From assembly GCA_008632985.1 (NCBI GenBank), contig QPGO01000057.1, positions 310,001 to 374,000 of the forward strand: a DNA stretch of 64,000 nucleotides, in the 5' to 3' direction. Of this stretch, positions 1-54,200 are shown one piece after another; position 1 is the stretch's first letter, and each line of letters starts with the position of its first letter. The DNA is from Psammoneis japonica. Its lineage: Eukaryota. Made by a program: the position numbers and the translations under genes. Below the pieces are notes generated by a model, which was given only the letters and a program-made list of their open reading frames with translations, did no database searches and was not told where the DNA came from.

Positions 1-604
1 CTCCCCGTGCCTTGATGTGGGTTGACAGTGCATTGCTGCAGCCCCTGACTCTGTGATTTGTGGTGCAGTTGTGCTGTGCCACAGAGTTCATTTTCCATGA
101 TTTTTGAATTGCCGCTTTGTTTTTTTTTCATGAGCACGTCCATTGCTGTTGGTTGTTGCATCCTCCACAAAGTTTCAGGGTTGCCACAACCAGCGAAATG
201 CCAACAATCCACATGCACCGGCTTTGGGGGGCAGCCGAACCCTTTTGACAGAGATTTTGGGTCTACAACATTGAATGGCACCCCCTTCCTTGGAGGCACC
301 ACTCTCAGTCTTGCTGGGGAGCAAACCCTCATGGCTCTCTGAGGCTGTCTTGATGTTCAGAGGTGGGGGGGCAGCCACAGGCATCCCAGGCCATGTGAAC
401 AACTTTGCAGAAAGACGTCACCTGGGCACAGCTGCAGCTGGCAACCCAGGCAGTTGCTCAAAATGTTCAGAGACAAGAGCAACCTTGTCTGCCATTTGTG
501 GCTGGACTTTTTGAAAAGTGGTGGACAGCAGATGCAAAAAACAAATGAACACTCTTCACCCTTGGACCACTCCACATGGCATTCAAGTTGAGCCGGCTGG
601 TGAG

Positions 605-845
605 GCATTGGCATCTGCTTGAGCTGCCCAGCAAGGTGTTGGCATCCACAAGGTGTTGGCATCTGCTTGAGCTGCCCAGCAAGGTGTTGGCATCCACTTG
701 TTGAGCCACCTTGCATGCCGCAGCATCTGCTTGAGCTGCCCCATTTGAAGTGGCATCACAACTCAAGCTGCCGCATGACATGGCATCAACTTGAGCCACC
801 CAAATGACATGGTGTCAACTTGAACTGCCCCGCATGACATGGCAT
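605..845 (+). repeat. Short tandem repeats (48-bp and ~30-bp units)
   Basis: tggcatctgcttgagctgcccagcaaggtgttggcatccac occurs twice (~609 and ~657), followed by diverged tggcatcaacttgagc-like units. Confidence 0.85.
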
Positions 846-1559
846 TTTCCTGCAGAGTCCATCCCAAAACAAGACCCGGCACAAATTAAGACCCGTCATG
901 GGTTGCAGCACAAAAAGTGTGCAGAATTTTCTTTTGGTCAAAAAATTCGAGAGGCATCGCGTTTGAAAGAGCGTGGCGAGAGCAGTTGATTGCTGCCCTT
1001 TTTACCCCCCAGAAAAATCTTGGCCCTTGCGTGGCGTGGTCTAATCTTCAGTGCTCAAATCACGTGCATTTCCACATGTGGGTCTTAAATCATGACCTCT
1101 GTGTCAGCCTCGGCTTGTCAGACATTTTGGTTCACATGCTGAAACTCATCAACCATTTAGATTTTCAAAAGTCAAGATTTTTTATGACAAGTTCAATGTG
1201 TTCTTTCACATTCAGGCGTGCAATTCCGAAATGCGCAAACATTGTGGCATCTGCATGGATGGAGATCTCAGGTGGGTCTTGATTTGTGATGAACTCTAGA
1301 AACATGGACAAAGATTAAAGGAAAACAAGATGTTGAGAAAACAAAAAATCACATTGAATCAACACAATCCATCAAATGCCGCAGAGTGATTCACCAACTG
1401 AGAATGTGAGATGAAATGACAGCACAATGATGGAAGCAGTTCTCATTCATTTTTGGACTTTGTCTCACCTCTCTTTTCACAGATGCACTCATCAGAGCAA
1501 AATGAATCATGCCATGCAATGGCGTTGTTGTGGGAAAAGTGTTTGGTGGCAAAATCTGG

Positions 1560-1860
1560 CAACGGTTGATGACACTGTCATGGTGGTTTTGGTGGTGGTT
1601 GGCGGTTGGGGGAGAGGGAAATCTGACCTGACCGGCTGTCGTGACATCACATGATGTGGTCCATCCGTGGTGTGCCAGAATCTGACATTGTGGTGGTGAC
1701 ATCATCAGTCACATGGGAACAGTGTGAAACATCATGATGTGCAGCACTGCATGAGCACACAGGGGGGAATCTGACCTTGCATTCTTGTGATGTTGCATGA
1801 CATTTCACCGCTGTGAGCCAGAATCTGATGTTGCGGCCATGACATCACAGCATGCATCAA
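1560..1860 (+). repeat. Diverged ~145-bp tandem repeat
   Basis: aatctgacc at ~1620 and ~1768; gccagaatctga at ~1674 and ~1818. Confidence 0.7.
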
Positions 1861-3619
1861 CACGGGGGAAGTTTCATTGAGGGTGTGCTCATTGAAATGT
1901 CTGGACAGGAACACAACAAAACGTTGCCGTCATTTAAAAAAATGTCTGGTGTGATGTTGCCAAGCAGAGGGACATCAACACAAGGGATTTTTTGGGGGAG
2001 AAGTCACTTGACATGGTGAACCCCTGACATGCAAACCCAACACAAGGGACTCCCTTGAGATCAAGTCCCTTGAAATGGAAAAAACACCCTCAAGCTTTGC
2101 AGTGTCCAGTGAAACCCATGTTTCCTGTGTGGCTTCTCATTTGCTGTCATTTTGTTTGCCACTGGCACCCTGATCTCAAGCCACAGGACACATTTTGCTG
2201 TCTCCATTTGTTGGTGCCCAAGGGTGACAAAGGCTGTTGCCACAGCTTCCCTCTTGTTGCACCTCCACAAACAATGACAAAAACAGTGTGGGAAGGGCTC
2301 AAGCGTTCACAGCACATGTGTGTGTCATGTTTGGCACAGTCAACTGAGGCAGAGAACAAATGCCAGGATGGCACAAAATGAAGCTTGCCATGCAAAGCAC
2401 CCTGACATGGGGGCATTGGGACATGCCTGCGAAACAAGCAAGTTGGCAATCAGAAAGATGTTGCCCACCAGCTTGGCCAGGGATGGCAACAGGTTTTGTT
2501 TGTGCAAGCAGGGCCAGAGTTGCTCAGCTTCTTTGTGGTCTGGAGTGCATTTTGTGCAGTGGGTGCAAAGGCAGGTGTGCACTCTTGTTGCAGCTGCAAG
2601 CACAATGATGTGACACCAAATGCATGCCGCCAGGCTGAGCAGTCTGGCTCAGTGTGCACCAAACTGCCCCAGGCCAGCTGCCAGCTCTGGGTGCTCTCAG
2701 CATGGTGGTGTTCACTTGTCCAAGCTGCACCACATTGGCTTGGAAAGGCTGCACTTGGGGTGGGCAAAGGAGAAAAGAAAACTTTTCAGCTCAGCTGCTT
2801 GCTTTGGAGTTTGCATTGTGAACAAGAAGCTCTTGAGAAAGAACAAGAAGTGGTGGGGTGCTGATGTCACCAGCATTTCTGGTCATGTCCTCTGCACACT
2901 CAACCACTCCTGGCAGGCACAATGTCACTCAGAGCTGCCTTGCTCTTTGAGCTAGAGCTTGTGCTGTTTGAGCTGGGCTGGTGTCATGGGCATTTGCACA
3001 ACCCTCATGGGCATTTGCACAACACACACAAAAAATGATGGTGAAACACTGTTGATTTTGCCGCCACACTTTCCTTTGTTTGGCACTTGGCTGTTGATGA
3101 CACAACAAGATGCCACTGACCCACTGTGTGCCACACAGCAGGCTGGTGGTGTTTTGGCACATTGGCAAAAGTGTGTGAAACCAACCAAGTGCCTTTGGTT
3201 GAGATGAGCAGACTCCCTGTCAAGAGATGCACATGGCAGAACAGATGCACAGGCCCACGCAGTGCCCCAGACCTGACATTTGTGCACAACACAGTCGACT
3301 GGGCCCAAGCAGCACAAAGAGATCAATGCAGGTGAAAATGAACCAGTTGCTCAGGACTTGAACCCACAGACACTTGGCTTCACTTTTTTGATGTTGCGCC
3401 AAGATGCCGTTGGCCTGCTGTGTGCACACATGGCAGGCCAGTGGCACCTCAGTGTAGTGTCGCCAGGTTTTCAGAGTCTGCTCACATTGCCAATTGCCAG
3501 GGCTGCTCCAAACATTCTGAAAAATGCCTCCTCTCCCACTGGCCAGGCCTGCCTGCACTGTTTCTGAATGTTTGAGCTCATCCCACATGTGGAACTTGCT
3601 GTCCTTTTGCACACCCAGT

Positions 3620-4290
3620 GCCCAAATTGATGAAAATGTTGCTGAGAGGAGAAGAGACAAGGCTGCCAAGATTGAGTGCCATGATCCATGATGCCCAAAA
3701 AGATGGCTCACCCCTCCTTCCTTCAAAATCTTTCTGTGCACCACCAAGCACTCAACTCAATGAAGATGTTTTTAGAGAGGAAAAGAGACAAGGCTGTCAA
3801 GACTCAATGCTGCAACAACACCCACTTTGGCATCATTGGTCTTCTTGCCACTCCAGAGATCTTGTGCACCCCAGACAATGCAAGTTCAGTTTGCATCTCT
3901 TTCAATTTTCATTTGAGATTTTTTGCACTGACACTTCCTTTCAACTTCATCCCCACAGCTGGAGCTTGTGAGGACTTTGCTGCAATGTTCCTTGAACATT
4001 TTTCCACACACTCAGCACTCAACTTGACAAAGATGTTGCTGAGAAGAGAAGAAGAGACAAGGCAGCCAAGACTGAGTGCAAGCATGAGACCCAAATGTGG
4101 CTTGTCCCTCCTCTTGCTCCATTTTGGTGTCCACAGTCTTCTTGCCTCTGAGCGAATCTTGTTTTGTGATGTTGCAATTGGCCCTTGCACCTCCAACAGT
4201 GCAAGAAGCCCATTTTGCATCTCTTTCAACTCTTGTTCAAGATTTGTTGCTGACAGCTCTTTCAGCCTCATTCTCACAATGCAGAAATGA
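3620..4290 (+). repeat. Diverged tandem repeat (three copies of a ~55-bp core within longer units)
   Basis: aagagacaaggc(t/a)g(c/t)caaga core in units beginning ~3627, ~3757 and ~4024; ttgcatctctttcaa at ~3891 and ~4216. Confidence 0.75.
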
Positions 4291-5014
4291 AGCCATTGGC
4301 ACTTTGCAACTTCTTTAAAAGATGCTGTCAAAAACAAAGAAAACATTTTTTGAGTGCTTTGGCCAGAGACCCATGAAGAAGACTGCTGGAATTGGCACAA
4401 CTTCTTCCATCTTCCAAGCCTGCTTCTGGCACCAAGCCATCTTCTTCTGGCACTTCTTTGACTTGTGCTGCAGCAGCATCTCTACTCACATCTCTCCAAG
4501 TCCACATTCAATGAATTGCAGCCATTTAAAAATGCAAAGACTGCACCTTGGGAAGGTTCTCCACAATCAATGCATGGGCTGTGTCTCAGCTGAAAATGGG
4601 CAGAGCATGCAATGCAGTGATTGCAACCACACCCAGTCTTTCTGGCCATCAAGAAAAGCTGTGGGTTGACAGATGCCAAGGCTGTCATTCTTGCTTCTGT
4701 TGTTTGTGGGACAGTGCATTCTGAAGTCATTCAAGCTGCACATGAGCAACACTTGGCTCAAGTTGAGTCAAGCAATGTGATGTGCTTCCAGAGGAACAGC
4801 AAAGTCTCTGTGTGATTCTCCATGTTGGAAAGCAAAGAGACCTGCCTCATCTGCATGTGCACCTGGAAAGTGCTGCTTTTGCCAAACAACAGTTGCTCAA
4901 ACACTCTGAGAGACCATTGGTCACCCAGCCAGATGTCAGACATGCAAAAAGCAGAAAAAGCAGGCTGCTGATTTCATCAACATCTGTTCCAGAGTTGTTG
5001 CAACTCTGCAGTTG

Positions 5015-5976
5015 GCACTGGTCCTCTCCAACAGCCTCCGTGGTTGCATTGCACAGTTCCTTGTTAAACAAACAAATTGCTGCACTGGGTGGTGCAAACA
5101 ACCACTTGGTGGCTTTGCCAAACTGTGAGGTGGAGGGAGCTGCATCAGACATTGTTGTGTGCTTTATGGGCTGTGCCGGTCAACACTGCATGGCAGCCTT
5201 GGTTCTTTTGTTGGTTGGCTGGCAGCCCAAATTGCTTGACACTGTTGCACTGGCTGAAAGCTGTGGAGATGCAACCTGGCACTGGTCCAGGGTGCACGGG
5301 AGTGGCCATTGATGAAGAAGCATCTCATCAAAAAACAATGTCGCACATTGAATCCATGGAAGAGGTTGGAGCCAAGCTGTTGTTGGACGGGCAAGGCTGG
5401 GGCACTGATGTCAAAGGTAGCATCTGGGTGGGTCCTGCCATTTTGCCACATTCAAATGAAAAAGACAAGACAATGTGCAAAGAAGTTTTTGGCCATGTGT
5501 GTCTGTCTGTTTGCAACGCATTCACGTGGGAAGAAGTGATTAAGATTAAGAAATTAAAACTCGTTTGGAAATGCAGCATCCATCTGCACAACCAACGGTG
5601 GCAAAATGCGGAATGGTTCACATCGAAATCCCGCGCTTCCATGCTTGTGGTGTCAACATTGGAATTCCAGTTCCTGGGTGTGCAACGCGGTGTGTGGTCC
5701 TGGACTGATTCTCGAAGCTTCCATCGAATGGCACCTGACTTTCCGCGTATCAACTCACGCTGCTTTTTCTCTTCTTACAGGGGGGCGTTCAGTTTTGGTG
5801 GGTTGTACGGGACAAAGTCAAAGTTTGGTGACACAGACATCGCAGGAGATGGCGCGCTTCAATTCTTCACGAGTCGTATCAAGGTGACGAGTCAGTGGCC
5901 AATTGAAAGGCCTGCTGCCGCTCTTGATCATAATGAAGCGGGTACAGATCATGCTAATTTCGCCGGAACCTTGTGG
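5015..5976 (+). pseudogene. ALDH6A1: Methylmalonate-semialdehyde dehydrogenase (ALDH6 family) pseudogene, 3' half
   Basis: Across shifting frames: ALGGANNHLVALP, GCAGQHCMA (GQRCMA catalytic motif), EVFGHV, NAASICTTNGG, VNIGIPVP, then an intron ~5678-5780, then FSFGGLYGTKSKFGDTDIAGDGALQFFT. Several frameshifts; 5' half unrecognisable. Confidence 0.85.
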
Positions 5977-6087
5977 GCCTTCCGCCAGTCCGAGAAGCTC
6001 AGGCTGTGTAGCTACACCGAAAAGTTGCTATCTAATCTAGTCATATCTAGAAGCATGCTTCCGAGTGTACCTTAACGAGAAAATCAT

Positions 6088-7215
6088 TCAATCGGCTGCT
6101 GGTTTTGAGACATTCACCGAGTCAATATTGTTTTCGTTGAATACCTCTTTGCCTTTATCAAGATACACCCACTTTGCGTTAGGCATATTTTCTCTGATCT
6201 GACTCGCAAATCTGCTCCTTGCGTAAACAAATGTATCGCAGCTTTGAACCAAGTGCATCGTAGCAAGAATGACAACTACTTCGTACTTGGGGTCATCAGA
6301 TGGGATTTGTGCTTCCCATCCGCCCTCGGCCCCCCTGTAACGGGGCCGATCCATGTACATCCAGTTTAACTGCGGAAACTCCTCCTCGGCCTCTTCGATT
6401 GCGTTCTGGTCGTCTGTGAGAAGAAAGATGTTCTTGGTGATATTTTCTCCTACAGCGTCAACATACTCTTTCACGGTGTGATACTTGCGACGCTTTCCTT
6501 TGTGTAGCACTACATCAGTTCGTCGCACGTGCATAACAGTGCATGGCTTCACGAGCTTCGTAGATTTCGAGAGTTTGTAGACCTCTCTTCTCAACCATGT
6601 CTGAGGCCTCGTTGCGTACTCATTCAGCCATCGACCCATTCGAGAGTGAATCGTTGCATCACCTATTGGTTTCAGCGTCTCAATATTATCGGGGTCGGCT
6701 TTGCACGACGTGAGATTCAAAAAGTAGCACGACATGTCCTTTCGAGGACAAACAGGGATACTTCCATCCTTTTTCGCTGCATAGTGCCATCGCCCCAGCC
6801 TCGGATGAACAGCTATGGGATGGTGATTTTCGTATCCAAATAAGAGGCCAATATTCACTAGAAGAAAGTCAGCGCCCCAGCCCGCCGACGTCATTTCAAT
6901 TGTCTTTGCGTTCGAGCAATTTCCATTGAATTGTGTGTCGTACAACTGACGAAAAAATGCTGCCTTCCTTCTGTCACCCATTGGCTTGAAACACTGATGC
7001 GTTTCGTTTTCTTTCACCACATGAAAGTCAGGGTGGTGTGTCCAAAATTCATCCGCATTCACCTTCCATTCAAAGCAAGTCTTCTTCTTCCCTTTGTCGA
7101 TTACTTGTTCCTCCCTGATCGAGAATACACTTGACCAATCGCTGTATAGCACTATCGCTGATAGTACAAAAATGATCAGCCAAAGAGAGGTAAATTTGTG
7201 ACTTAGCCACATCAT
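6088..7215 (-). CDS. Alpha-1,6-fucosyltransferase-like (GT23/FUT8-like) type II membrane glycosyltransferase
   Basis: 375-aa ORF with N-terminal TM helix, HVRRTD and IFLLTDD motifs. Confidence 0.75.
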   Translation of the reverse strand: MMWLSHKFTSLWLIIFVLSAIVLYSDWSSVFSIREEQVIDKGKKKTCFEWKVNADEFWTHHPDFHVVKENETHQCFKPMGDRRKAAFFRQLYDTQFNGNCSNAKTIEMTSAGWGADFLLVNIGLLFGYENHHPIAVHPRLGRWHYAAKKDGSIPVCPRKDMSCYFLNLTSCKADPDNIETLKPIGDATIHSRMGRWLNEYATRPQTWLRREVYKLSKSTKLVKPCTVMHVRRTDVVLHKGKRRKYHTVKEYVDAVGENITKNIFLLTDDQNAIEEAEEEFPQLNWMYMDRPRYRGAEGGWEAQIPSDDPKYEVVVILATMHLVQSCDTFVYARSRFASQIRENMPNAKWVYLDKGKEVFNENNIDSVNVSKPAAD

Positions 7216-7609
7216 GCCAAGCAGTAGTCGTTCCTATTTCCACCCGTGGTTTTGTGTCATCTGGACGGTGTTTTGTGTGCTTTCGGGGGAAAAAATGAGC
7301 GAAGATTAGCGCATCTTATGTACCGTACATGATTTTGATAGATAATTTTAATTCATATCGTAATTTACGTATACATAATTTAAAGGTATTAGTTCACAGA
7401 CAGTCATACTACTTTTCTGTATGAATACAGTGTACTGAACACTCACCGCTCACATTTTGTTCGAAAGTCGATTGCCCCACAACAGCATAATAGGGCTATG
7501 TTAAAATACATCGCTACTAGCTGCCAGAACTAGTTGACAACCCTCACGAGAGTATTTGGACTGATAAAGAGATGAGTTGTGTCAGTGAAAAAATTCACAG
7601 ATTGTCTGA

Positions 7610-8302: not shown

Positions 8303-10930
8303 AATTTTGCAGGACCATTGGCACTTTGGCTTGCTGCACTTCGTCTTTGCCATCAGAGAATTCTCCAGATTTTAGTGTTCTTTCTGCACAGTCTTTTCCC
8401 GGTGGCAACAGACAATCCCATTTCCCATTTTCGCCATGACAGACGCAGGTCCATCCTTGGAATGAACATTGGGAAAGCTGCTACCTCTGCTGTTGCAATG
8501 AATTAGCTCCAATCATCAAGCTCAACTGGGCTCAAGAGAAAAAGTGTTCAATCTCCTGACTTGAACCCTGTGCTGAGTGGGACTCTGAAAAATGTCCATG
8601 GCAAAGGTGGAAATGTCAAGCCATCAATGAAGTGAGTTCAAGCAGATGGGAAAGGCATGTCATTGGAAGACACCAAAGAGTTGCTCCACATTTGCTGTGA
8701 ACTTGGCACTGGCCTTTTTGACCTTGGGACTGCCCCAATCTGTCGAGGATGTGGATGAGTTGATTCCTGGTTTCACACTTTTGGGAGTACATTTTAGTGC
8801 AGCGCCTCTTGCCATGGCATCCCAAAAAAATTAATTGTGTTGATTCTTCACTTGCCATTGAAAGCAACAATTGAAAAGACTGCAGCATCAGAGCCATCTT
8901 TGAATTTGTCAAAAAGCCAGTTGTTCTGTCTGTGATTTGTCCCTTGACATTTGCTCTGCACGACACCCACCAACAGCAGCCCTGTGCCCCCTGTTGGGGC
9001 TTTCTTGAGCCGCAAAATGTCAACCAGCTGGCAGAGCTTCAGAAACAGCTGCAAACTGGGAAGCTGAAATGTCATCCTCCACTCTTCTTGCCACTGCCAA
9101 GAGGACTCTTGTTGACTGCATTGCACCCAATGGAATGTGCGTGCTGTTGACAAGACATGCACATGATCAAAACCCTGAAAAGGGCAATTTGTCCATGGAT
9201 GCCAATGACAGAAATGGTTCTCTGGGCACTGCCAAGAACAGCAGCACTCATGGCAGTTGCTTCTGGAGATGGCAACCTCAATGTCTTGGACAATGCTGGC
9301 TGTGTGTCAATGTGGCACATCAACCCAGGCGGGAGTCTCTCCAGCCAGCTGCTGGCTGAAGAATCTTGTGTGAAATTTGCGCTGAAAGAGTCTGTCAATC
9401 CATGTGTCAGGGGGTTTTGGTGAACACTGGATGACTTGTCGTCCATTGGGTGCGTGAAATGCACTGGCAAAATCCCCAAATGCACTCATGAGCAGACTTT
9501 TTTTCAGCCAGCAGCTGGCTGGAAACTTCCCCAAAACCAGCACTGCCAAAATGCATGGACCACATCAATTGCTTTTCTCTTGTCACTTGCTGTCATTTGT
9601 GCTGAAAGAATCACACACAGAGAGCCTCATTGTTCAAGCCAAACAAGGTCCAGAGCTGGGACCCATTTGATTGTCAGGGTCAGCTTTGCCAGACAAGGTG
9701 GGCTCAGCACAAGATGCAATTGTTGTCATGCCTGTGAAATGGCACATGGCATCAAATGTGTGTGCCTTTGCCATTGCAAATGTCATCACTGAATGTGTCA
9801 TGGATGACAGCCCACAGTTTTTTTAAAATCCAAGCCGTCTCATGTCCTGGTGGTGGCTTTGCTTGTTGCTTCTGTTTTGCCAATCATTTCCTGATCACCG
9901 CAAGGCATTCAAACGCCATTTCACAAGCGATTGAAAGTCATCAAGTGGCGCGCATGAAAAAACTGTTGAAGTTGGCCATGGTGTGACTTGCTTCTCTCTG
10001 TGACAGCAATGTGGAGGATCACAACTTGGTTGCCTTGCCATCCAAATTGCCCTCAGTTGCTTTTTTGTCCCAGTGTCATTGTCGTCGGGTTCCAGCAGTG
10101 AGGGACCTGCGAGGTGATCATGGGACATTCCTTTGCATCATGCACTCGCCAAATTTCTGTGAGCTGGCACTCCCATCTTGCAGACATGCATTGGAGACCA
10201 GGCATCATTTCCAATTCATGTCCCTGACAGCATGTGAAGTGACAAGGAACTCTCAGTTGCTGCGGTGAAGGTGTTTTCTGAAGTCTTGCTCAAGGAAGCT
10301 GGCACCTGAGCTCTCTTTGGATGACAAAGACTCACTGTTGTCTTTGCCACAAATCTGCAACATGTGCAGACTTTGTTTGTTGGGTCATGAACATCATTTT
10401 TGAAGCAGTTTGTTTTCCGGCAAGCAAGTTTGCACCAACAAAGACTTGATGACAGCTTTGAACAGAAAGCGCTGGCCTCACCTGTGTCCGCGCGTCCTTC
10501 CAAGATAATGCTAAAGTCAATCAAGCTGCGTGTGAACAACACTTAAGGCGCTTTGGGTTGAGTAATGTCACACGCTTCCAGAGGAGTGGCAGAGTCCCAC
10601 AGTAAATGTCCATGTTGAACAGCAAGGAGATTGCTTGCCTGTGCGTGCGCCTGAGAGGGGCTGCTTTCGCTGAGCGACCACTTGATGAACCCATGAGTCC
10701 GTTGGTGACCCGAATAGACATTAGACATGTAGAAATAGGCTGCAGACTTCATCCACATCTATTCCAGAGTTATTTTATCTGTATATATATACGATCGGCA
10801 TTGATTTTGGGTGTGCAACAGCATTGTCCGTGCAGCCTTCAGCGCGCAGTCTGAGCCGGTGGTCGAAATGCTTGCTTGCACGCGGTCGCTTCATGCCAAT
10901 CAACGCAGAGAGCCTTTGCAACTTGGAACT
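8300..10930. mobile_element. Block B: degenerate TpA/CpG-depleted DNA
   Basis: Only a handful of TA in 8500-10500, mostly tttaaa/ttaat/ttag. Spurious Tyr-free ORFs in all frames. Confidence 0.7.
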
Positions 10931-16789: not shown

Positions 16790-19700
16790 TGACCCTCACA
16801 TGCACCTCATCTTATTTTGTGACAACAAACAATCGAAGGCGGGAACCATTGAGTCTACACGGTTCCGGCAATCATGTCTTGTGTTTTTCACCCTGCAAGG
16901 AAAGAGTGCTTGTTGAACACAGCAGTCATCATCAACTGTGTAGCGGGTGCTCTTTTTCTTCCTTGGATCTCGGGGTGGCACTGCCAGCAGGTGGCCTTGC
17001 CTCTCTGTTTCCAGTGCATGGGGCAGCACGCTGTGAGGACACAAAAACAAGAACACATCCAATCATCACCACAGCAATGTCCAACATGATGACAAGTTGG
17101 AGAAAGGGGTGCTTGGCACTTGTGCCCCACAACAGACTTTTCTGTGGTCTCTGAGCTCTTGGACCATGCCAGAAAAGAAGTGAAAAGCAATTGATGCCAA
17201 ATCAGAAGACACTCTGGGAGCCACCCAACAAAAGCTTTTGCATGCTTGCTGACTTGTTTGCCAGTTGGGCTGATGGATGTGTGTGTGCTCCATGCAAGAT
17301 TCTCTTCAAACACAGTGTGGCTGATGTGGCGTGCCATTTTCTTGGAGGGCATGAAAAGCTTGGCCACAAATGTTGGAGCATCGGGGTGCAAGGCAGTTTT
17401 GGGAGGACAGACAGACAACATTGCAGCAAAAGATTGCTGACTGTTGTGGATGATGTCAAGAGTGATGCCCACTTTTTGGCTTCTGCACCAGGGCGGCACT
17501 GTGATGCATTGGCAACAACAAGGTGACAGCGCTGGACATGTGTTTGCAACCCATGTGGCGAGCTCTTTGGAGTTGATGAGACTGATGCAGATTGGTTGTT
17601 GAGCTATGATGTTCCAACACAGAAGCCAAAAAGGCCAGCTGGAAAGTCAAGAGGAATCCAAGGAAGAGCTGGAGCTCCTTGAGAGAAATCCAAGACTTGG
17701 TTGATGCAAGCAATCATGGCATTCAAGCTTGCTGAACCAACAAGAGTCATTGCACATTTCATTGCTCCAGCCAAAGGAGTGTCTGGTGAAGAAACAGTCT
17801 CTGGAGGGCCTTGCCATGAGCAGCTGCAAGGGTCCCTGCTGAAAGAGGGCACAGCAAGGTTGTGTCAGGCCAAGAGAAACATCAGCGTGGGCAAAGACAC
17901 AACTGAGCATGGAAGTCTAAAAGACTTGAAGGAGTGGGTGCACAATGCCATTGTCAAGTTGGGTTGACTGGCAGATGGATGCACAGAAACCATGAGAAAA
18001 AGAACTGAGTGCATTGGAAGAATGCTCAGGCCAGAGATGCAAGCTCTGGTGTCTCTGAGGCAATGGAGCAGTTCAATCCAAAGGAGCCAGAGCATTCATT
18101 GGGAGCAACCACATTGGAGAAAGACAAGGCAGTCTGGGAGAAATGATGCAATCACTGCATGGAACAGGGCTGATCTTCAGGCTGCAGAAGGTGAAGGCAT
18201 TCCACTCATTTGTGGGATTGTGCATGAAAGCTGCACATGACAAGATTGAACGAACAAACAAGCTTGCAAAAGTCACAAAGGAGTGGGGCACAGCGGTGCT
18301 GCTGGGAATTCTCAAGTTGATCTTGTTCAGTGCAAATGAGAGACTCCACTTGCATGTTCGGGCTGTCAAGGCATGGAGGCAGTTGGTGCTCATTCATCAA
18401 GAAGATGAAGGAGAGGTGCTTCAAGATTGCTGTGATTGGTTTGCAAGGGCTGTTGGGATGGCAGAAGGATCCCACTGCTGCAGGATTGTCCTGGAAGAAA
18501 TTGCCAAGAAAGAAATTGGGTTCAGTGCAGACACTGAAGATGCCCAGGAGAAAGGAGAAAGAGAGGAACAAGCTGTGAGCTGTTTTGCCAACAGAAGAAG
18601 GTGTGCACCAACAGAAATGTTGGCATGCCTTTTAAAAAACCTGTGCTGACAGTTTACACTGGGGGTGGACACCGCAGCTGTGTGGACATGTGCAGGACCA
18701 GCAAAAACCCTGAGGGTGAAAGTTTTGCACAACAAGAGAAGAAGGAACAAACCAAATGCTCTGGAAATGTGACAAGGTTGAGCATGCAAAGAAGGAACAT
18801 CGTTTGCTCAACAATGATGATGACCACTCAATGGCAGAGTTTGAGGATGTGATCTGTGGGTCCAATCAAAGCTGTCAGTGTGTTGTTGGATGGCACAGCA
18901 TTCAACCACAGTGTGGTGGTTGAGGTCAGTCAATTGATGGCTTTTCAGAAGTCAGAAGGAGTGCGGCATTGGAACATCAGGGTGCAAGGCAGTTTTGGGA
19001 GGACAGACAGACAGACAATGTTGCAGTGAAAGATTGCTGACCATTGTGAATGACATTGAGAGTTTGTGTGTGTAGACTCTCCATGAACACACAGGTTTTG
19101 TGCTCACTCAAGGGGCAACAGTGCCGCTCAGATGTGTGTTTGCAACCCACGCAATGAGCTTTGGAATTGGCAAAACTTCTTTGGGTTGGCTGGCAAGCCA
19201 TGACATTCCAACAACAAAAGACTTGTGTTGCTTCTCTCCCACTGCCACGTCATTGTCAAGACTGCCGATGATGCACTTTGCTCCTTTTTGACCACAGCAC
19301 TGCAGCTGTGCTGCTGACACTGGCCAAGGTGCAAGAACAAAGCTGCCGTTGCTCCTTGCATGCAACCATGCAACAGCATGAGCAAACAAGTGCGATTTGC
19401 AGAAAAGCTGGCGTGGGTTCAGGCTTGCAAGCCAACGAAGCTTTCCCCACCCAGCCCACTTGCTTGGCTGCACCTCGATGCCCTTGGAGCAGCAGTTGCC
19501 AGAAGTTCACAAAAAAGACTCATGGGAAAGGATTTCAATGCCCCCCAAACGAGCATGCCGGTGCATGGAAACATGGGGCTGCATCAATTTGCTGCCAGAG
19601 GGAAATGTGCTGCCTCCCTTGCACACCTGGTCTGCCGATCACACAGGGGCCCACAAAAGTGACACAGGCCAGCAGGTGGTGGTGGCTTGCACGCTGGCGC

Positions 19701-19800
19701 TTGTTCCCAACAGCAGACCTGCAAATGACCGTGAGAAGAGATTCCCAACCTCCTTGGTGTTTGCTTTTGACCTCTTGTTAAGCAATGATGTTGCCATCGT
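16790..19800. mobile_element. Block C: degenerate TpA/CpG-depleted DNA with an internal direct repeat
   Basis: About six TA sites in 16900-19780; direct repeat 17371-17463 / 18967-19063. Confidence 0.7.
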
Positions 19801-24558: not shown

Positions 24559-25039
24559 GGGCATAGGGCGTGTGAACTGTTGGAATCATCCCGGATCTGT
24601 TTCTCATATTTCCATGTTGCATGGACACCTAATCTTATACTTTAACAATTTACGTACGTTAACTAACAACTGACTGTGTGGATTGATAGCCAATAGCTTT
24701 TCCATTTCATTTAACAACTCTGATTCCTCCATTGCTTCCATCTCGAGAAGCTTGGGAAGCTTCCGCGCCGTGACAAGTTCCGACACCGTTGCCACATGAA
24801 CATTAATAAGTTGACACAATCCGTCCATTTCCGTCAACTTAACTTCAAGTAAATCATCAATCAATGATTGTCTGATAATTCTTTTTTTGTATGACGTCTT
24901 TCAGCCAGTCAGTTCGCTTTCTACAGAGGCGCTTGTCGGGTTTGTCATCATTGTAAATTCACAAATTCCGTCTTTGATTAGAGTCACCTCTGGAACAATT
25001 AGGAACACCACCACTGTCCAATGGTCGTAGGTCCCAGCA

Positions 25040-26600
25040 TATCAGGGCCAAAAAGAACCTTCCATTGAACATTGTCAACCACAACAAAAAAGAGATCATG
25101 AGGCCCCAGCTTGCTTTTGGTGTCATCACAAGCTTTTTTGATGAGTCGACTCTGCTTGTTGTCTCCGAGCAGTGCTTCAAGACAATGCCACACAAAAAGG
25201 TGAGCATAGCATGTCACACACACCTGCCTTTGAATGACATTCCTGCAAAAATGTTGGCACTTGACCTGCTGCTCCTGCTTCCACTTGTGGGTTGTGAGTT
25301 CTTTGGATGAAATCGGGTGCCAAACATGGAGCCAAAAGGTGTGACTGCAAAGAAGCATCTCTTTCCAAGTTTGCAGTGCATTGCAGTCAAGGTTCCTGTT
25401 ACAAGGAAAAACTGGATTTGGTGGCTCTGGGCTCTCATTGTCTTCAACATTCTTGGTTGATGACGCTTTGACAACCACTTCATGAAAGGCCTGAAACAGC
25501 TTCTGAAACTCAAGACAAACTGACAAATCAATGTTGTCTTTGCCAATGGGAGTCTGCATCAAAGCAATCTCTTCATGTCTCACTCTCTTGTTGTCACAGT
25601 GCTTGCTTAAACTCAAAACCCCCAAAAATGTCAAGCGCAAAAACCACCATCCCCAGACAGTTTGCAAAAACGTGGCAGTGTCCTTTCTGAATCAAGATGT
25701 TGCTGTTGTTTCCATGCTGACAGATTAAAACTTGGACCTTTTGCTGGTTTGCATTGCACACTGGTGAAGCCAGCATCATGCTGCACAAACTCCATGCCTT
25801 CACAACAATAACAAAACAAACTGATCAGCAAATCTTGCGAAATGCATTCTTGGCCACCTTTTCGACAAGTCACCCGCAGTGGCACAAAACACACTGCCGA
25901 CCAGTTTTGTGGACCAACTTGCCTTTGGAGCAGTCAAATCTTCATGGAATGACAGTCAAAGTAATTCCCACAAACCACATGACAATGACAGCGAACATGG
26001 GGATTGCAGTGGTGTTGGTGGCTGCTCCAAGGATGACCAAGATGGGGGCACAGGACCAGGCCATTGGGTCAGTGCTGGGAAGGGAGCAACAACACTCAGG
26101 GTGACAAGCAGTGATCAAACGGCCAGCATGGATCTGCCAGCCACAATGCTGGCAGTTCCTATTAAGCAATGTCTTTAGCAGAGGTCTTGAGCCTCTTTGC
26201 ACTGCAAGTCAATCACGATGTTGCCAATGAGCTTGACTTGCTGGACGTTGTTGATGAAGAAGAGCAGCGTGCATTTGTGCGGTCCTTTGCTGCCAAACAC
26301 ATCATCCCTTGCAAAACAGGCTGTGAATGCGAGCATGACACCTGGCCACCTTCCACTGCAATTCATCAATGAAAATGGGCCACTCGCAGTCATTTGTTTT
26401 TTTGTGTTGCATGCACCATGGGGGCACGATGTGAAAAACACATTCGTCAAGCAAAGAAAGCAAAACAACGGATCCCCTTGACGAAGCGGCAGCAACAACA
26501 ATGAATCCCTCTCTGGTCGATGAAGCAATGTTTTTGTGGGTTGGCACACCGTCTTTGCCAGCATCCAACAATCCTTGTGGACACCCCTCTGCTCTCTATT
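25040..26600. mobile_element. Block D: degenerate TpA-depleted DNA (relic of a large ORF on the minus strand)
   Basis: No TA in 26178-26596. Minus-strand protein-like text (LGPHDLFFVVVDNVQWKVL) continues into less mutated DNA at 24604-25000. Confidence 0.65.
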
Positions 26601-26858
26601 CTATGGCATGTCTGAGGACCGAGCAGCGACAATGCCATGAAGCACTTCTGTCACATGAAAATGTATAATCCCATCGCTCAATAAAAAGTATGTTGAATTT
26701 TAAAAGTATCCAGAATTAGATACATTTATCATCGCTCACATTTTCAACGAAAAGCAAAAAACAGATGAGATGGCGATTCACACCAAGACATCATCGTCAG
26801 TGTGCCATCGTTCGCATGATCCACTCATCTGATCATATCTATCTAAATTCACAATATA

Positions 26859-38318: not shown

Positions 38319-39928
38319 ATGCTGAGACCAGGTCGTCAAGCCAACGGCGGTCTTCCGACGAGTTATGGTGGCAATGGAAGCAGCAATAGCAACGGTGGAA
38401 GTAGCTTTGGAGTAGGATACGGCGGCGGAGCTCCGAGCAACGGATATGGAGCCTATGACGGTGGAGCTGCATCATCGACGCATCATCGAAGTCACTATGA
38501 CGAGGACAATAACAAATACAAGCGACGCAACAGTCAGACCAACATGGCATCGATGCTAATGAATAAGTTTGTTATCTGCCTCGTGATTGCCTGGTGTTGT
38601 TGTGCACCACGTTTTACTACCGAGGCAGCGGTGCTCGTGTGCTGAAGCAGTTGGGAGTCAAGTCCATTGAAGAAGCCAAGGAGCAACTCCACTCTATTCA
38701 CGGAGAACGAGATCAATGGCGTAAGGATACCAAGCGAAACATTCAAGACTCGAGAGCTATGGATGATAAGGCTCGTCGTCTCGAAGAGAGGAACAAACAA
38801 CTCGAGCGGGAATCAGAAGAGCTTCGTACCAAACTTTCAAAGGTGGGCTCTGAGGTAAAAATGTCGGACGGACAGAAAAAGACAATTGAGCACTATGCCA
38901 AGCGCGATACGGCTTGGAGACATCAGGTACACAAGCTGCAAAATGCTACTGCGAGGGAATCGAAACGTGCTGCTCTGGAACAGTAAGTAGAGTGTGGGTG
39001 GTGTGTGTCATTCTGTTGAAATGTGCTTGGAACTGACGCACATGCATTCTTATTCTTGCGAAATAGATTTGGAGCTGGTCCACACCGCGTCAAGGTGTCT
39101 CTTCATTTGCCAGACGATATAGAACCCAATCCAAAGCATTTCTTTGTCCTTGAATTGGCACCCTTGGATATCATGCCTCATGCGGTTCATTTGTTTTTGC
39201 AGCAAGTCCATCACAAGCTATGGGATCACACGTGGTTCTATCTCAACGGTCCTCACATTTTGCAGGCTGGACCTCAAGCCTATGAGGACGAAGATGATCC
39301 AGAGGACGAAGCAAAGCTCAGGGAATTTACCAAGCGACAGTTGGATACCTTGGCCTTTCCGGAATACTCGGCCAATTACCCGCATGCCAAGTGGACAATT
39401 GGCTTTACGGGACGCCCCGGTGGACCGGATTGGTACATTAACAAGTCAGACAATACCCGACCCCACGGTCCGGGTGGTCAACGCCAACATACCTTGATGG
39501 AACAGGCAGACTCGTGCTTTGCCAAGGTTGTGGAAGGATTTGACATTTTGGAACGGCTCTTTAGGTTCCCAGTCTACCATGATGACGAATACAAGAACTT
39601 TTTCGAAGAGCCCATTGAAATTCTGTCGGCGCGAATGTACTATGGAGACGAAAAGGAACACCCCTCGACCGAGAAGGAACTCAAGGAGGAAGAGAAAAAG
39701 GCAGAAGAGAAACCCAATCACCATGAACACGAAAAGAAGAAACCAGTCAAGTCGCATAGGACGGACTTTGATGACGATGATATCCTATCAGATGAAGATT
39801 GGGAAGACGAATGGGATTATCACGACGACGAATTCCATCATCACGACCACGATCATCATCATGAGGACCATCATGAGGATCATCATGACCACGATCATCA
39901 TGAGGACCATCATGAAGCCTATCATTAG
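38319..39928 (+). CDS. Membrane-anchored coiled-coil + cyclophilin-like domain protein with His/Asp-rich tail
   Basis: FVLELAP...PHAVHLF, HILQAGP, IGFTGRPGGPDWYIN and CFAKVVEG; intron 38983-39066; frameshift at ~38590. Confidence 0.75.
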
Positions 39929-41691: not shown

Positions 41692-41944
41692 GGTGGACCG
41701 TGAACTGACGAGCAATTCAGAAATTGTGAGAGCCTTCGAACGAGAAGAGATTCTGTCTGCAATTGAGGCAACTTGGTACAAACCACGTAGAAATCTACGT
41801 GTCATCAGCCGTTATCGCGTTGAGTTGATGTTCGCAGAAAGTTTCGCGATAGTTATTTTGGCGCAGTTGTCGTACCTATCGATCTTAGTCTATCGTGCTT
41901 TTAACATTTTCCGTCTCAAACGTAAACATCTGTGCTTCACTTTA

Positions 41945-44166
41945 TTTTCACTCCATTCCTGTTGCAGATGGCCAACCTTGACCTGCTGAAGATCATCTGG
42001 GTGGAAGAAAAAGTGGATGGGTCTCTCTTGTCTTCCTGCCTGAACACCGCTGCTGCTGGCGATCAGCAACTTTGGCTCAAATCACATCAAAGCTTGGGCT
42101 TGTTGGGTTCGCACCAAGCCAACGACTCCAGCAAGTGGTCAAAGCAACAGCTGGAGCTCTGCAAAGAACTCTTGCAACTTGCTCTGATCATCAGCTGCAC
42201 CTTCAATCTCAAGTGGGTCTTGCCCCCCAAAGCAAGCAGTGCTTGCCCACAACAAACTGTCGCCAGCATGGCGCTGAGCACGCACAGCAATCAAGATGGG
42301 AGAAGCATCTGGACCTTTGTGAGCTCAATGCAGACAAATGTCCTCATGTTGTGGAGGCTTGGGTTCCTCAACTGGCTGGATGAACAGAGCACTTGTGCCC
42401 AATGAATCATCAAGGGCTGTGTCCCTTGTTGTCTTGCTGGACACAAGACAGCATGCCAAGCTCAAGAGATGGGCTGGCATTGCACAACACAAAACAGCTG
42501 CACATCACCCACCTGAATGAGGCACTGGATGAAAAAAAATGTGGACTTTCCCATGGCACACCTTGCTGAATTGAGGCAATGGAAGAAGCAACCTCTCGCC
42601 TGTGAGCTCTGTTGCTTTTGGGTCAGGGCAATTGGGCTGGGTTTGTTGTTGCAGCAGAGGGTGCTTCAAAGCTGAAGAGAGAGGCTGTGCACGATTGGCA
42701 AAAACCTTTTGCCAGAGAGACTGCATCTCAGTGCCTTTGTTGCAACACAAGAACATTTGAAGGGTGCAGCATTCATTGGTTTTTGCGCTTTCCTGAAAAA
42801 GAGCAGTGACCGAACAGATGTCAAAATTTTTGGGGGGAGAAACTGCGAGACTGAGAAATGACAAACACAAAAGATGCATCTCTCCACACACAGGCACATG
42901 AAAAAGACACCCAACTGTGAGAAACTCAGCCTGGTCTCCTCACTCAAGTCAAATCTGAAAGAGTTTGAATGTCTCCACACAACCATTTGGATCAAAATGT
43001 CCCTCATTCTTGTGTCAAAAAATTTCTCATGCATCAAAATGCTGCAACCTCCCACTTTGATGGCACCAGCCTCTTTTGGATGGTTGTCTCCATTGTGTGT
43101 CTGGACTTTTTTGGGAGACACAGCAAGAAGAAGGCTTGTTGCACCCCTGTGCATCAGACATGGGGGCAATTTGACTGGGGCTCGCTGGAATCATGTGGCA
43201 TGGACAACACCTGAAGAATTTTCCATGCAGGTTCAACCTGCACTGGCATTTGGGCCCTGGCACATTTAAATTGGGTCAGCTGCACTCCACACTGGCCTGC
43301 CAAAATGTCCATGCAGCCATGCCTTTCTTTCCCTCACTGCACACCACACAAACAATTTGGGCGTGCTCCCATTTTCACAGCCAGCTTTTGTTTCATTCTT
43401 TCAATGTGAGATTTTGATTCTTGGCTCCCCTCTCGTTTGTCCAGCGGCTCACTTCATTGTTCACTCATGGACAATCATCACCCACTCATCAACCCAGAAT
43501 TGTTTGGAGACCACATTCCATTGCACTCCTCTGCACCCTTGCTTGTCCTCCTCTTGTGCATCTCCTTTGCACCTCTTGAGGCCTTGTTTGTGCCAACCTT
43601 GGTTCTTTTTTGCCTTCTGTCCTTTCCCAATGCTGCTCTTTTTTGTGGAAATGAGTCTCTGTTCCTTCAGCTCTTCCTTGGATTTCCTGCACATTTGCAC
43701 CCACTTGCCCCAGCTGTTCTCCAATGCCAACAGACCAAATGCCAACTTGTTTGAGCAACATGTCGATTGGAGCCAATGATTCCACAGCTTCTTTCTGACA
43801 ATGACGGGCAGGAAGTGGCAGTTGCAGCAGTTGTGCACCTCTGTGTTGTCATCCCTTCCATCCAGCATGTCCTCCAAAGATGGCGTGTTTTCCTTGTTGC
43901 AACCCAGCCTGTGCCTGTTTGTCTGCGATGCAAAACAAATCAACACGGGTGAGTGTTTGTTGTCAGAGCTCTGTTCATTTTTGTCCTTGCAGTGGTGCTC
44001 ACACAAGAACTCATCCTTGTGTTCTCCATGGGTGTTGTTTCTCTTTCTTGTCACTTGTCTTTTTGCCAGGTGCAATTCTGCGCAAGCGCCAGCAGGATTG
44101 TCCCGTGTGAGAGTGTGGTGGCACGCCAACACCTCCTCGGGCACTTTGGGACGTCAGGCAGTTGCG
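41945..44166. mobile_element. Block E: degenerate TpA/CpG-depleted DNA
   Basis: A single TA (tttaaa, 43267) in about 2.3 kb. Confidence 0.75.
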
Positions 44167-44320
44167 CCATCATGAGGATCATCATGACCACGATCATCAT
44201 CATGAGGACCATCATGAAGCCTATCATTAGAGAATACAGTTGCTGCGTAACGAGTAGTATACATGCTTTTGTATTTTGTGGTTGTGCTGTGAATGGTAAT
44301 TGAACTGAGAAACGAGATGC
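44167..44320 (+). repeat. Direct repeat copy 2
   Basis: ccatcatgaggatcatcatgaccacg...gcctatcattagagaa...gttgctgcgtaacgagtagtatacatgcttttgtattttgt matches 39868 onward. Confidence 0.9.
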
Positions 44321-51251: not shown

Positions 51252-51429
51252 TGTTGATTACTAAGTGTATTGTTTAAAATCCAGACGACTAAAAGTATGG
51301 TAAGAGGCGGTTTTATTTACACAATGCGGTAGAGAGTCGTCGTTCTGGGCGGCTAAAAGTACAGCGGCCATTTTCGAATCATTCGACCGCCTGCGACCAC
51401 ACCGACCACCAATAAACTAAACTTATTAC

Positions 51430-54200
51430 GTGCTGAAAATCATGGTTGGGAACAACAATGTGATTGAAACAAAAGATCTGGCCACAATTTGTTCCACCTT
51501 AATGGCAATGCACTCCCTTTCCCTGGAGGATGATCTGTGGCCCCTTCCTTGTCTTTGCAAGCGCGACTCTTTCCTTTCACCAACCAACTTCTCCAGATGT
51601 TGGATTTTTGGAAGAAAAGTCAGAGTTGGGCATTTTGTCCCCTGTGGCCACATCGGCAGTGATGCCAACATGCCAATGATCACTTGCTTGGAGCTCCTTG
51701 ACATGTGCTGCATGTGCACCAAAGTTTGGATGCCTTTCATGGAGTGGAAGTGGCGGTCAAAGTTGAGAGGGGCTTTGCAGCTGCAATGGCACCCTTGACT
51801 TTTCTGATGAAAGATGAAAGGAAAGGGAGCATGACTCCACTGCAGGAATGAATGTTCCATCAGTTTGATGTGCGAAGTGACCCCAGCAGATCCATGTTCA
51901 TTTTCAAGGCATGACCCTGCCTTGTCTTTCATTTCATGGGAGCCTTTTGCCAAGGCAAGCATGCCCAGTTTTGTTGTCAAACTCGCTGATGGCACAGTCC
52001 ATTCAAGTGAAAAGGTGGATCCTGTTTCAAAACAAATTGGCACTGCCCATGATGGATTGTGAGAGTTGAAATCTTTTTGCACCCTTGCCTTCCACCAGAT
52101 CCCCACCTCCAAGTGACAAGACACAACTCAGAAGAAGCAGCAAAGAAACAAGGGGTTGCTGTGCTTCACCTTGTCAAACACATTGGCTGGTCAGCAGAAA
52201 CAAATTGAGTTGCACTTTTGTGCTCATGATTTTTGCTCATGAACTGATTGTGCAACTTGTTGAATTTCAAATGATTTGTTTGCCAGATCATGGCTCAGCT
52301 GCACCAACTCTTCACTTGCCAGAAAGCAGCTGTTCACTGGGGCTTTAAAGAAGAGAGCAACTCCAGAGGGATTTCCAGGTGTGGTTGGTCCTCATTGCCT
52401 TTTGCTGGTGTGCCGCAGATGACATGTTTTTTGCACCAACAATGTGTGCCAACCTTTGCAGAGGTCCAGCAAGGCTGTGTGTTCTGCTCAAAAAGAGGAG
52501 TGTTGCCCATCAAAAGCAACCTGACAGAGGACTGCTCACAACCATTCAGAAATTGTGAGATCTCCTCACAATGCAAACACATGGGATGCCACTGCCTTTT
52601 TCCCTCTCTGTTGCAATGCATTGGTTGCATGTGTCAAGCACTTTGCATTTGCCTCTGTGAAGAATGCAACATGTGCTTTCCACTCAAACCTGCAGAGACT
52701 CATGAAAAGTGCCATTTCTGACATCCTGTGACATTGTGTTGATGTGATCCTCCTGACCAAAACCTGTCAATGCACAATGTAGATTTGATCACACACATGC
52801 AAGAACTTGCACAATGAACCCAGCTCAAACAAGACTTGATGTCCTTCCCCATACATTGCTTTCCTCTGCCTGTGCTTGAACTTGACCCAGCCATGCTTGG
52901 CTCTTGCCAACTCTCTTGCTGGCTTGCACCCACCAGCATGCCAAGTTTGCACTCTTCCACAAAGGGCAAACAGCCCTCACAGAGTTGCTGCATTTGACTC
53001 TTGAGAATGGCACCTGTGCATGCCAGAGAACATTTGGTGCAAGTCATTCTGCTCAAAAGGCCAGCTGGGCAGCTGGACAAGCTGTGCTGCAACCCACTGT
53101 CTGAAACAAATGCTGCTGGGCATGCATGGCTCTCTCCCATCCTCAGCAACTTTCTGCTTTGCAATTTTTTTCTCGTTGCCTTCTGATTTTCAATGATGGC
53201 TGAAGTTGGTCTCGTTGCTCTTGTTTTTCCCAGCACCTTGCTTCAACCACCACCTGCCCAGGTTTGCCAACTTTGTTTTGAAATGTTGTGAACATTGTTT
53301 TCTTCACTGGGCTCACATTGTCTGCAGGAAGCTAAAACGTGCTGTGTTGCACACAAAAACAATCTGGTTTTCTCTCCTCATGCAATGGAGAGCACACTTG
53401 CCCTTCTTTGAGAATGAAGAAAAAGAAAGGCCTTGCCAAGACCCAACATGCTGAGAATGGATGGCTGTCATGCTGCGGTGCCATTGCTCTCAGGAAGTTT
53501 GGCCTCTGGAAGCAACAACACCTGCCATTTCAACAAAAACACCCATGATGTGCAGTCAGCAATGCTTCAAATCTTACCTTGCCAAAGCCCTTGCAGCCTG
53601 CTGCAAGTGCTTGTGACAGCTGACAAGCAGTCTCTTGTTTTCACCTTCCATGGAGCCAGGCTCTGCACATGAATGATGTCATAAAAAGGTGCTTTTGAGT
53701 TCCTGGCTCTCATCACATTCCCACAAAGGCAGCTGCACTGACGCACCTCTCAAAATGACAAAGATTGCTCAACAAAGTCTCAGCCCACAGCAAGAGGGAT
53801 GTGGGGACTCCAGCTGCATTTCCTGCCCACGGAGCAAACAGGCATGTGTCTCTGTGAACACACAGCAAAAAAGTTCTTGAAGGGGGGCCCCTCGCAGCAC
53901 TGGACTGTGACACAAAAGTTTTGCTTTGTCATGCGCTGCATGTTGCAAGCATGCATTTCTGCTTGTGACTTTGGCAGCATCATGTGTCATTTTGTGGTTC
54001 AATTTTTGGGCCATCCACTCAACAACTTTTTGACTTTTTTGCAGCACCACTCTCAAATGTCTTGAGAGCAGTGCAGGGTAGGTGGATTTTTGAAAATGTT
54101 GAGTGTTGAGAGGCACAATTGCACCACAAATTGGTTGTCGAACTGAACTCTAATTCTGCTGAGAAGGCATGATGACACAACCCTAACCTACAGTGCCATG
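51430..54200. mobile_element. Block F: degenerate TpA/CpG-depleted DNA
   Basis: About ten TA in 2.7 kb; very CA/TG-rich; Tyr-poor ORFs in all frames. Confidence 0.7.

Follow-up and report, generated by a model that had tools for sequence, protein, structure and literature searches.

RIP, as described in Neurospora and other fungi, introduces dense, regional and context-dependent transitions that destroy reading frames, leave sharp compositional blocks and can leak into neighboring DNA. It needs a duplication, hits both copies and consists of C-to-T changes only, which occur mostly at CpA, create TpA and lower the G+C content. Deamination of 5-methylcytosine is an established cause of CpG decay; in vertebrates and plants it turns CG into TG or CA on both strands, leaves TpA untouched and is usually much slower relative to the background. 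Hypermutation at TCG has reportedly been seen in basidiomycete transposons, and retroelements are said to carry editing footprints of ADAR (A to G, with a preference for U before A) and APOBEC (C to T), which are strand specific and arise via RNA or cDNA. For dense, targeted A:T-to-G:C change at TpA in nuclear DNA, we know of no described mechanism. For diatoms, as for other eukaryotes, our literature search returned no description of a joint block-wise loss of TA and CG; it may be mentioned in the paper on this genome. Silenced DNA is methylated in diatoms, whose DNMT4 enzymes, of unknown function, group with fungal RID (PMC9998398).

The locus described here, the remnant of an aldehyde dehydrogenase (ALDH) gene at the end of a block that nearly lacks TA and CG, resembles the products of RIP and CpG decay in kind, whereas the targets, the chemistry (two opposite transitions that leave the G+C content neutral) and the trigger differ.

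Blocks nearly without TA and CG lie between ordinary genes

The window, i.e., the whole 64-kb stretch of DNA that was analyzed, is eukaryotic and compactly organized: its introns are short, and its genes, ordinary housekeeping ones, include those for CDC20, a mitochondrial carrier, a Vps4-like AAA ATPase, a RecG-type helicase and glutathione reductase. Among named proteins, the nearest belong to raphid pennate diatoms; the glutathione reductase, for example, is 85% identical to that of Seminavis robusta. Between these normal genes lie six or seven TA/CG-poor blocks of 1.5 to 5.7 kb each, which occupy about one quarter of the window (approximately 17 kb):

1-1003, TA/CG-poor block
1298-5776, TA/CG-poor block
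8483-10512, TA/CG-poor block
16857-19800, TA/CG-poor block
25041-26602, TA/CG-poor block
41924-44228, TA/CG-poor block
51428-54151, TA/CG-poor block
1-5510, block A, which overlaps the first two entries and in which TA and CG are nearly absent and TG and CA abundant, with a leaky stretch at approximately 1004-1297

In the pooled blocks, rho was 0.04 for TA, 0.18 for CG, 1.84 for TG and 1.77 for CA, compared with 0.59, 0.97, 1.18 and 1.17, respectively, in the DNA outside them. The G+C content was unchanged (0.483 in the blocks versus 0.475 outside), and intergenic DNA outside the blocks had normal TA and CG. Both strands are affected, as seen from the equal enrichment of TG and CA. Within 1298-5776 alone we counted 15 TA, 42 CG, 530 TG and 504 CA, and block A may extend beyond the start of the window on its left side. 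When one fixed block threshold was applied to windows of 500 nt, 60 of 255 passed in the 64-kb window, as opposed to none of 1,483 in 80 metagenome loci with ALDH orthologs (400 kb), which are mostly short, transcript-like contigs.

The dinucleotides that survive in the blocks are not a random sample. TTAA accounts for 16 of the 47 residual TAs in the blocks and for 67 of the 1,758 outside, showing that this context is largely spared, and RTAY is almost entirely lost. Residual CGs are enriched for G/C flanks (GCGC, CCGC and GCGG), and those flanked by A/T were lost most, which we count as a further likeness to methylation-driven CpG decay. Some block edges are sharp, as at 41924 and 51428, where the composition switches within 50 nt, and others are gradual.

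The blocks also contain long open frames of 150 to 230 amino acids on both strands (e.g., 3688-4290, 16888-17499, 24999-25667, 43461-44144 and 51426-52124). Since sequence without TA offers no TAA or TAG stop codons, such frames arise spuriously, and a gene caller could take them for genes. A Pfam search assigned no family to 80 of the 83 block open reading frames of at least 90 amino acids, the exceptions being two ALDH pieces and a sub-threshold match to CILP_5th, or to any of the 150 scanned frames of 50 to 89 amino acids (150 of 154, the four shortest having been omitted). A block-versus-block comparison found no DNA similarity among the blocks.

Composition alone cannot distinguish the loss of TA and CG from their original absence. 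The ALDH remnant is the sole stretch in the approximately 17 kb of blocks with an ancestor that can be named, and an intact copy of the gene displays the conversion letter by letter.

The right end of block A lies in a dead aldehyde dehydrogenase gene

The ALDH sequence at 5016-5973 on the plus strand corresponds to the 3′ 56% of a pennate diatom gene (consensus columns 228 to 513 of 513). Two Pfam Aldedh (PF00171) matches exceeded the gathering cutoff of 23 bits, at 5016-5294 (24.5 bits, E value of 1.3 × 10−5) and at 5269-5700 (28.2 bits, E value of 9.4 × 10−7). The closest protein relatives are diatom methylmalonate-semialdehyde dehydrogenases (MMSDH), and TIGR01722, the MMSDH model, was the best model for both pieces of the remnant, with 41.5 and 32.8 bits against a cutoff of 448.5, a whole-protein score beyond the reach of a remnant. 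The closest orthologs, P0011 and P0002, passed that cutoff with 487.8 and 495.2 bits. For finer comparison, we used a profile of 56 full-length orthologs (480 to 575 amino acids) taken from the first 120 matches, of which 64 were dropped for length. Within positions 1-6100, its sole match was at 5019-5970, a candidate at 4171-4257 (score of −3.7) having been dismissed as noise, and a frameshift-aware alignment matched 278 codons, 179 of them identical to the consensus. The remnant is organized as follows:

5016-5255, plus strand, ALDH piece 1, columns 228-308, with the catalytic-Cys motif, Arg to His (CAC at 5184) and Ser to Leu (TTG at 5199)
5257-5550, plus strand, ALDH piece 2, after the +1 frameshift at 5256, with Tyr to His at 5326 and 5344, Ile to Met at 5269, Ile to Thr at 5335 and Tyr to Cys at 5512
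5552-5602, plus strand, ALDH piece 3, after the +1 frameshift at 5551, with an in-frame TAA at 5555-5557 and Tyr to Cys at 5585
5605-5646, plus strand, ALDH piece 4, after the +2 frameshift at 5603, with CGs kept at 5609, 5624, 5632 and 5634
5649-5677, plus strand, ALDH piece 5, after the +2 frameshift at 5647, end of the large exon
5511-5677, mosaic edge of the block, with converted sites (5512, 5536 and 5585) among retained TA and CG; 3 TA and 8 CG in 167 nt
5678-5780, plus strand, intron, GTGTGC...TTACAG, joining piece 5 to the last exon in frame, with normal TA and CG
5781-5973, plus strand, last exon, open and of normal composition, with 43 of 64 codons equal to the ortholog consensus
5974-5976, plus strand, TGG at the ortholog stop position, the frame continuing to TAA at 6070-6072 (open reading frame to 6075)

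The four frameshifts and the in-frame stop codon disable the gene, which besides is incomplete. Neither tblastn with 11 orthologs nor the unfiltered 56-sequence profile matched the first 227 columns, the N-terminal half, on either strand of 1-5015. In three intron-bearing relatives, columns ~7 to 436 lie on one uninterrupted exon, and the remnant is therefore broken mid-exon near 5016. In the catalytic motif, which reads GQRCMA in the 56 orthologs, the Cys codon is kept and the invariant Arg (56 of 56) is now His, as would fit a dead copy. These comparisons supported the original assignment of the remnant as an ALDH6-type (MMSDH-type) pseudogene: two orthologs pass TIGR01722, the remnant pieces match that model best, and the lesions are present. 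A pseudogene as such is ordinary; the orthologs are full length, and it is the window copy that is truncated and frameshifted. Because the gene was truncated mid-exon and carries four frameshifts, hypermutation need not have killed it.

Two further features of the 3′ part deserve mention. The donor GTGTGC at 5678 had been suspected of deriving from GTA. This idea gained no support, as the nearby introns in all three relatives start with GTGAGT or GTGCGT and the donor lies among retained CGs. The intron itself was briefly considered to be conserved, an idea dropped since none of the three relatives has an intron at its position. All 56 orthologs end at the codon at 5971-5973, and their stop codons, available for 45, are TAA (25), TAG (12) and TGA (8). 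The TGG at 5974 could thus stem from TAG by a TA-to-TG step, or from TGA by another transition. The second copy of the locus, described below, has one letter fewer at 5976. No tandem repeats, Rfam matches or tRNAs were found in or near the remnant.

A second, divergent copy of the locus

The contigs of run X1 contained 86% of the sampled words of 3500-7500. Contig 1 (2,605 nt, depth of 60.7) equals window positions 3639-6241 except for 4 letters and 2 single-letter gaps, frameshifts included. These few differences partly concern homopolymer lengths, and contig 1 is consequently not merely the same consensus; as the X1 contigs reproduce the window version, the odd composition is not an assembly artifact. 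X1 may be the sample from which the window was assembled, and we therefore take it as technical support rather than biological replication. At site 4629, contig 1 has G (CG) where the window has A (CA), which could reflect a conversion that still segregates or an error in the consensus.

Contig 2 of X1 represents a divergent copy at a depth of 52, compared with 61 for contig 1. This second copy, also found in contig 8 of X2, a run on the sample of X1, differs from the window over 5082-5647 by 76 letters and 13 gaps (566 nt, ~13.4%) and over 5748-6241 by 59 letters and 14 gaps (494 nt, ~12%). One letter each at 5255 and 5551 and two letters at 5603 are missing from it, so that three of the four frameshifts are absent, and the fourth (5647) falls at the point where its alignment breaks off. 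Its protein is absent from the protein collections, in which the best identity to the last exon was 66% and the best whole-query identity 44 to 49%. In contig 8, position 5647 is joined to 5845 by 92 letters, a number that equals the length of the two exon parts (94 in the window, including a 2-nt insertion) without the 103-nt intron; the contig is therefore spliced. X2 looks like a transcript assembly, a point on which its record is silent; it has no cover over 3500-4973, which we do not count as evidence of silence.

Contig 2 extends to 6241 and so enters the neighboring, convergently oriented open reading frame (6088-7215) at its 3′ end. Farther downstream, 6647-7311 is present in X1 in two versions of equal depth, one identical to the window and the other ~10 to 12% different. 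Two homologous loci, either alleles or homeologs, thus exist in the organism and differ strongly. Because the neighboring frame and the downstream DNA also occur in two versions, the second copy is a syntenic allele or homeolog and not a dispersed paralog. Alignment to an intact ALDH6 copy had been suggested as a check; over 5117-5357 it did make the direction of TA and CG change visible, with a comparator that turned out to be syntenic rather than a dispersed paralog. Of the two scenarios offered at the outset, a process spreading into a neighboring gene or one hitting a captured gene copy, synteny disfavors the latter and favors overlap of the process with the remnant of a neighboring gene.

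TA and CG were converted to TG and CA

The DNA-level spectrum spans 241 nt (5117-5357) plus 30 nt, and the edge and the 3′ exon were judged from the orthologs alone. Of 223 rows of differences, the 40 listed include 37 for 5117-5357, and in 20 of these a TA or CG of the second copy corresponds to TG or CA in the window: TA to CA (8), TA to TG (2), CG to CA (5) and CG to TG (5), the last two classes being distributed over both strands as in CpG decay. Half of the directed changes (10 of 20) are A:T to G:C. The remaining differences comprise 2 reverse changes, 8 other transitions and 7 transversions. The second copy has 9 to 10 TA and 12 CG in these 241 nt, where the window has 1 TA and 3 CG; one change, at 5166, created a TA. 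All 10 TAs of the second copy and 10 of its 12 CGs were converted, compared with other differences at ~6%, a figure that covers both lineages together, and this near-complete conversion implies that these steps changed tens of times faster than the rest. Thirty loose X2 letters preceding 5082 gave a similar picture: compared with the window by eye, they showed 10 differences, 7 of TA/CG type and 3 transversions, and their translation restored the ortholog consensus.

The orthologs polarize the changes. The second copy has CGC where the window has CAC at 5184 (G at 5185), TCG where the window has TTG at 5199 (C at 5200), T at 5326, 5336 and 5344, and A at 5271. It agrees with the orthologs in Arg 5184, Ser 5199, Asp 5121, Ala 5166, Tyr 5326/5344 and Ile 5269/5335, and the window therefore holds the derived state, the direction being from TA/CG to TG/CA. 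Four substitutions had been proposed from family knowledge, and each was borne out, the first pair by the letters of the second copy and the second pair by the orthologs: the columns changed to His in GQHCMA (5184) and to Leu at 5199 hold Arg and Ser, respectively, in 56 of 56 orthologs, and the Cys codons at 5512 (SVY to SVC) and 5585 (SIYT to SICT) stand where 49 of 56 and 56 of 56 orthologs, respectively, have Tyr. CGN, TCG, ATA and TAY codons are in use in the ortholog DNA at the affected columns. Left of 5600, all four conserved Tyr columns now read His or Cys (5326, 5344, 5512 and 5585), and four of five Arg columns read His or Gln, the fifth (5058) being Ser; on the other side, TAC at 5806, CGC at 5632 and CGT at 5875 were kept.

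We scored as novel any residue found in less than 5% of the 56 orthologs at columns whose top residue reaches at least 50%, and permuted the target residues 5,000 times. Of the 30 novel changes in the block part (5016-5510), 11 are single TA/CG-to-TG/CA steps, whereas shuffles gave 2.85 ± 1.48 and none of the 5,000 reached 11. In the edge (5511-5677) the proportion was 4 of 8, a number reached by 10 of 5,000 shuffles, and in the last exon it was 0 of 9. The remaining 19 of 30 changes in the block part are of other types, indicating that ordinary decay took place too. The expectation that the upstream coding sequence is degraded in specific directions was thus upheld by both the nucleotide list (20 of 37, versus 2 reverse) and the residues: the orthologs carry Arg and Tyr rather than His and Cys at the sites in question, and the excess at TA and CG is far above chance.

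Conversion stops inside the homologous segment

Per 100 nt, 4400-5000 contains 0 to 1 TA and no CG, 5000-5500 contains 0 to 1 TA and 0 to 2 CG, and 5500-5600 contains 3 TA and 4 CG; beyond 5600, CG has the normal level of 6 to 7. By feature, there are 3 TA and 5 CG in the 495 nt of 5016-5510, 2 TA and 7 CG in the 103 nt of the intron, and 5 TA and 12 CG in the 193 nt of the 3′ exon, which is as normal as originally described. The profile is a near-saturated plateau to ~5510, slightly leaky in its last 500 nt, followed by a ~170-nt mosaic and no conversion beyond. A mutation gradient had been proposed; its contrast between the upstream and 3′ parts was reproduced, and its smooth slope gave way to this plateau and mosaic edge.

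The intron, the last exon and the read-through tail of the remnant are unconverted. Divergence from the second copy is similar in the block (13.4%) and outside it (12%), and it is therefore the spectrum and not the amount of change that marks the block. The second copy stays homologous up to 6241 or farther, past the end of conversion at ~5510-5680.

A proposed process acting on a domain rather than on homology

One of two homologous MMSDH-type loci is dead, and we consider it probable that the block in which it begins was hit by a context-dependent process turning TA and CG into TG and CA. Both gene copies adjoin the same downstream neighbor; the window copy is a dead remnant that lacks its first ~227 codons, and its first ~500 nt make up the right-hand end of a block at least 5.5 kb long. 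The proposed process is one of transitions that convert almost all TpA (A:T to G:C) and the majority of CpG (G:C to A:T) to TpG or CpA. Its direction, its dinucleotide context, its near-saturation, its action on both strands, its restriction to one of the two copies and its fuzzy stop at ~5510-5680 can be read directly from the comparisons above. What it recognizes would be a chromosomal domain, for example silenced or modified chromatin over the DNA to the left, rather than sequence homology, and the remnant would be a bystander at the edge of that domain.

A competing possibility is that the segment is a gene fragment inside a mobile or dispersed element and was mutated as part of that element instead of decaying in place. 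The mid-exon cut at ~5016, where the three intron-bearing relatives have a single exon, would suit such an origin, as would the fact that the rest of block A matches no recognized family. The remnant, however, shares its 3′ flank and the start of the convergent frame with the intact copy (contig 2 to 6241), which places it at the homologous locus; none of the 233 block open reading frames scanned with Pfam contained a transposon protein domain; and contig 1 covers the block at single-copy depth (60.7). We regard this origin as unlikely.

It is also rather improbable, by our estimate, that a RIP-like process, i.e., mutation triggered by homology, hit the ALDH segment because it is duplicated. 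Two copies do exist, and the DNMT4 enzymes mentioned above would provide a candidate relative of RID in diatoms. But only one copy was converted, the second keeping its 9 to 10 TA and 12 CG in 241 nt, whereas RIP mutates both copies across their homology. Conversion stops at ~5510-5680, although homology continues to at least 6241 and the second version of the DNA up to 7311, and the other ~5 kb of block A and the other five blocks have no mutual similarity. The chemistry differs as well: in place of C-to-T change at CpA with an excess of TpA, we found TpA destroyed (rho of 0.04), changes both from A:T to G:C and from G:C to A:T, and an unchanged G+C content. The stop within the homologous segment, together with the single copy hit and the spared intron and last exon, argues for a regional process and against triggering of the RIP type.

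The same three observations argue against slow neutral decay under a general, genome-wide mutation bias without any targeting, which we think has very little chance of being correct. Pseudogenes do drift, CpG decay is common, and changes outside TA and CG are present in the remnant too; yet the intron, the 3′ exon and the read-through tail of the same gene, as well as intergenic DNA, keep normal TA and CG, and the conversion of 10 of 10 TAs and 10 of 12 CGs contrasts with ~6% of other change. The footprints of ADAR and APOBEC, finally, involve the same base changes (A to G after T, and C to T), but in place of changes on one strand we found both strands affected, in a gene remnant that lies at its own locus. 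A base-calling or assembly artifact at modified bases, with the true DNA still carrying TA and CG, would affect both strands equally, as strand-mixed miscalls do, but is hardly credible given that the X1 k-mer contig (depth of 60.7) reproduces 3639-6241 to within 4 letters and 2 gaps, frameshifts included, and differs in homopolymer lengths, so that it is not the same consensus.

Returning to a domain-directed process, its CpG arm would most simply reflect deamination of 5-methylcytosine. For the TpA arm, to which we know of no enzymatic counterpart or described mechanism, we can only speculate on two candidates: adenine might be deaminated within the TpA step, or a TET/JBP-type enzyme might oxidize thymine (5hmU/5fU), which would then mispair with G. 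TET-type enzymes are reported to accept thymine as a substrate (PMC11804724).

The pair of copies shows that the mutational process is real, in which direction it runs and that it is nearly saturated against a ~6% background, and it indicates that a domain edge rather than homology sets its limit. A wider reading, which we put forward tentatively as a serious possibility short of a conclusion, is that this diatom lineage possesses an undescribed, domain-targeted hypermutation system that removes TpA and CpG, is neutral in G+C, largely spares TTAA and hits one of two loci. If so, the action on TpA would call for an activity at the DNA level that is new, either deamination of adenine or oxidation of thymine, with a link to the silencing machinery, and the pseudogene with its intact counterpart would serve as a calibration point for direction, rate and spread. 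Such a genome would be a starting point for finding a new DNA-modifying or DNA-editing activity and for understanding DNA silencing in diatoms.

Other observations in the window

Two features outside the ALDH locus were recorded. At 39851-39925, a CAT/GAC-rich coding repeat (His/Asp-rich, with periods of 12 and 27) lies in an open reading frame with a weak cyclophilin match. On the minus strand at 56253-60058, two overlapping open reading frames jointly resemble a RecG-type helicase (wedge, DEAD, Helicase_C and RecG_dom3_C domains) with a C-terminal RNase_T-type exonuclease domain, a fusion that, if real, would be unusual.
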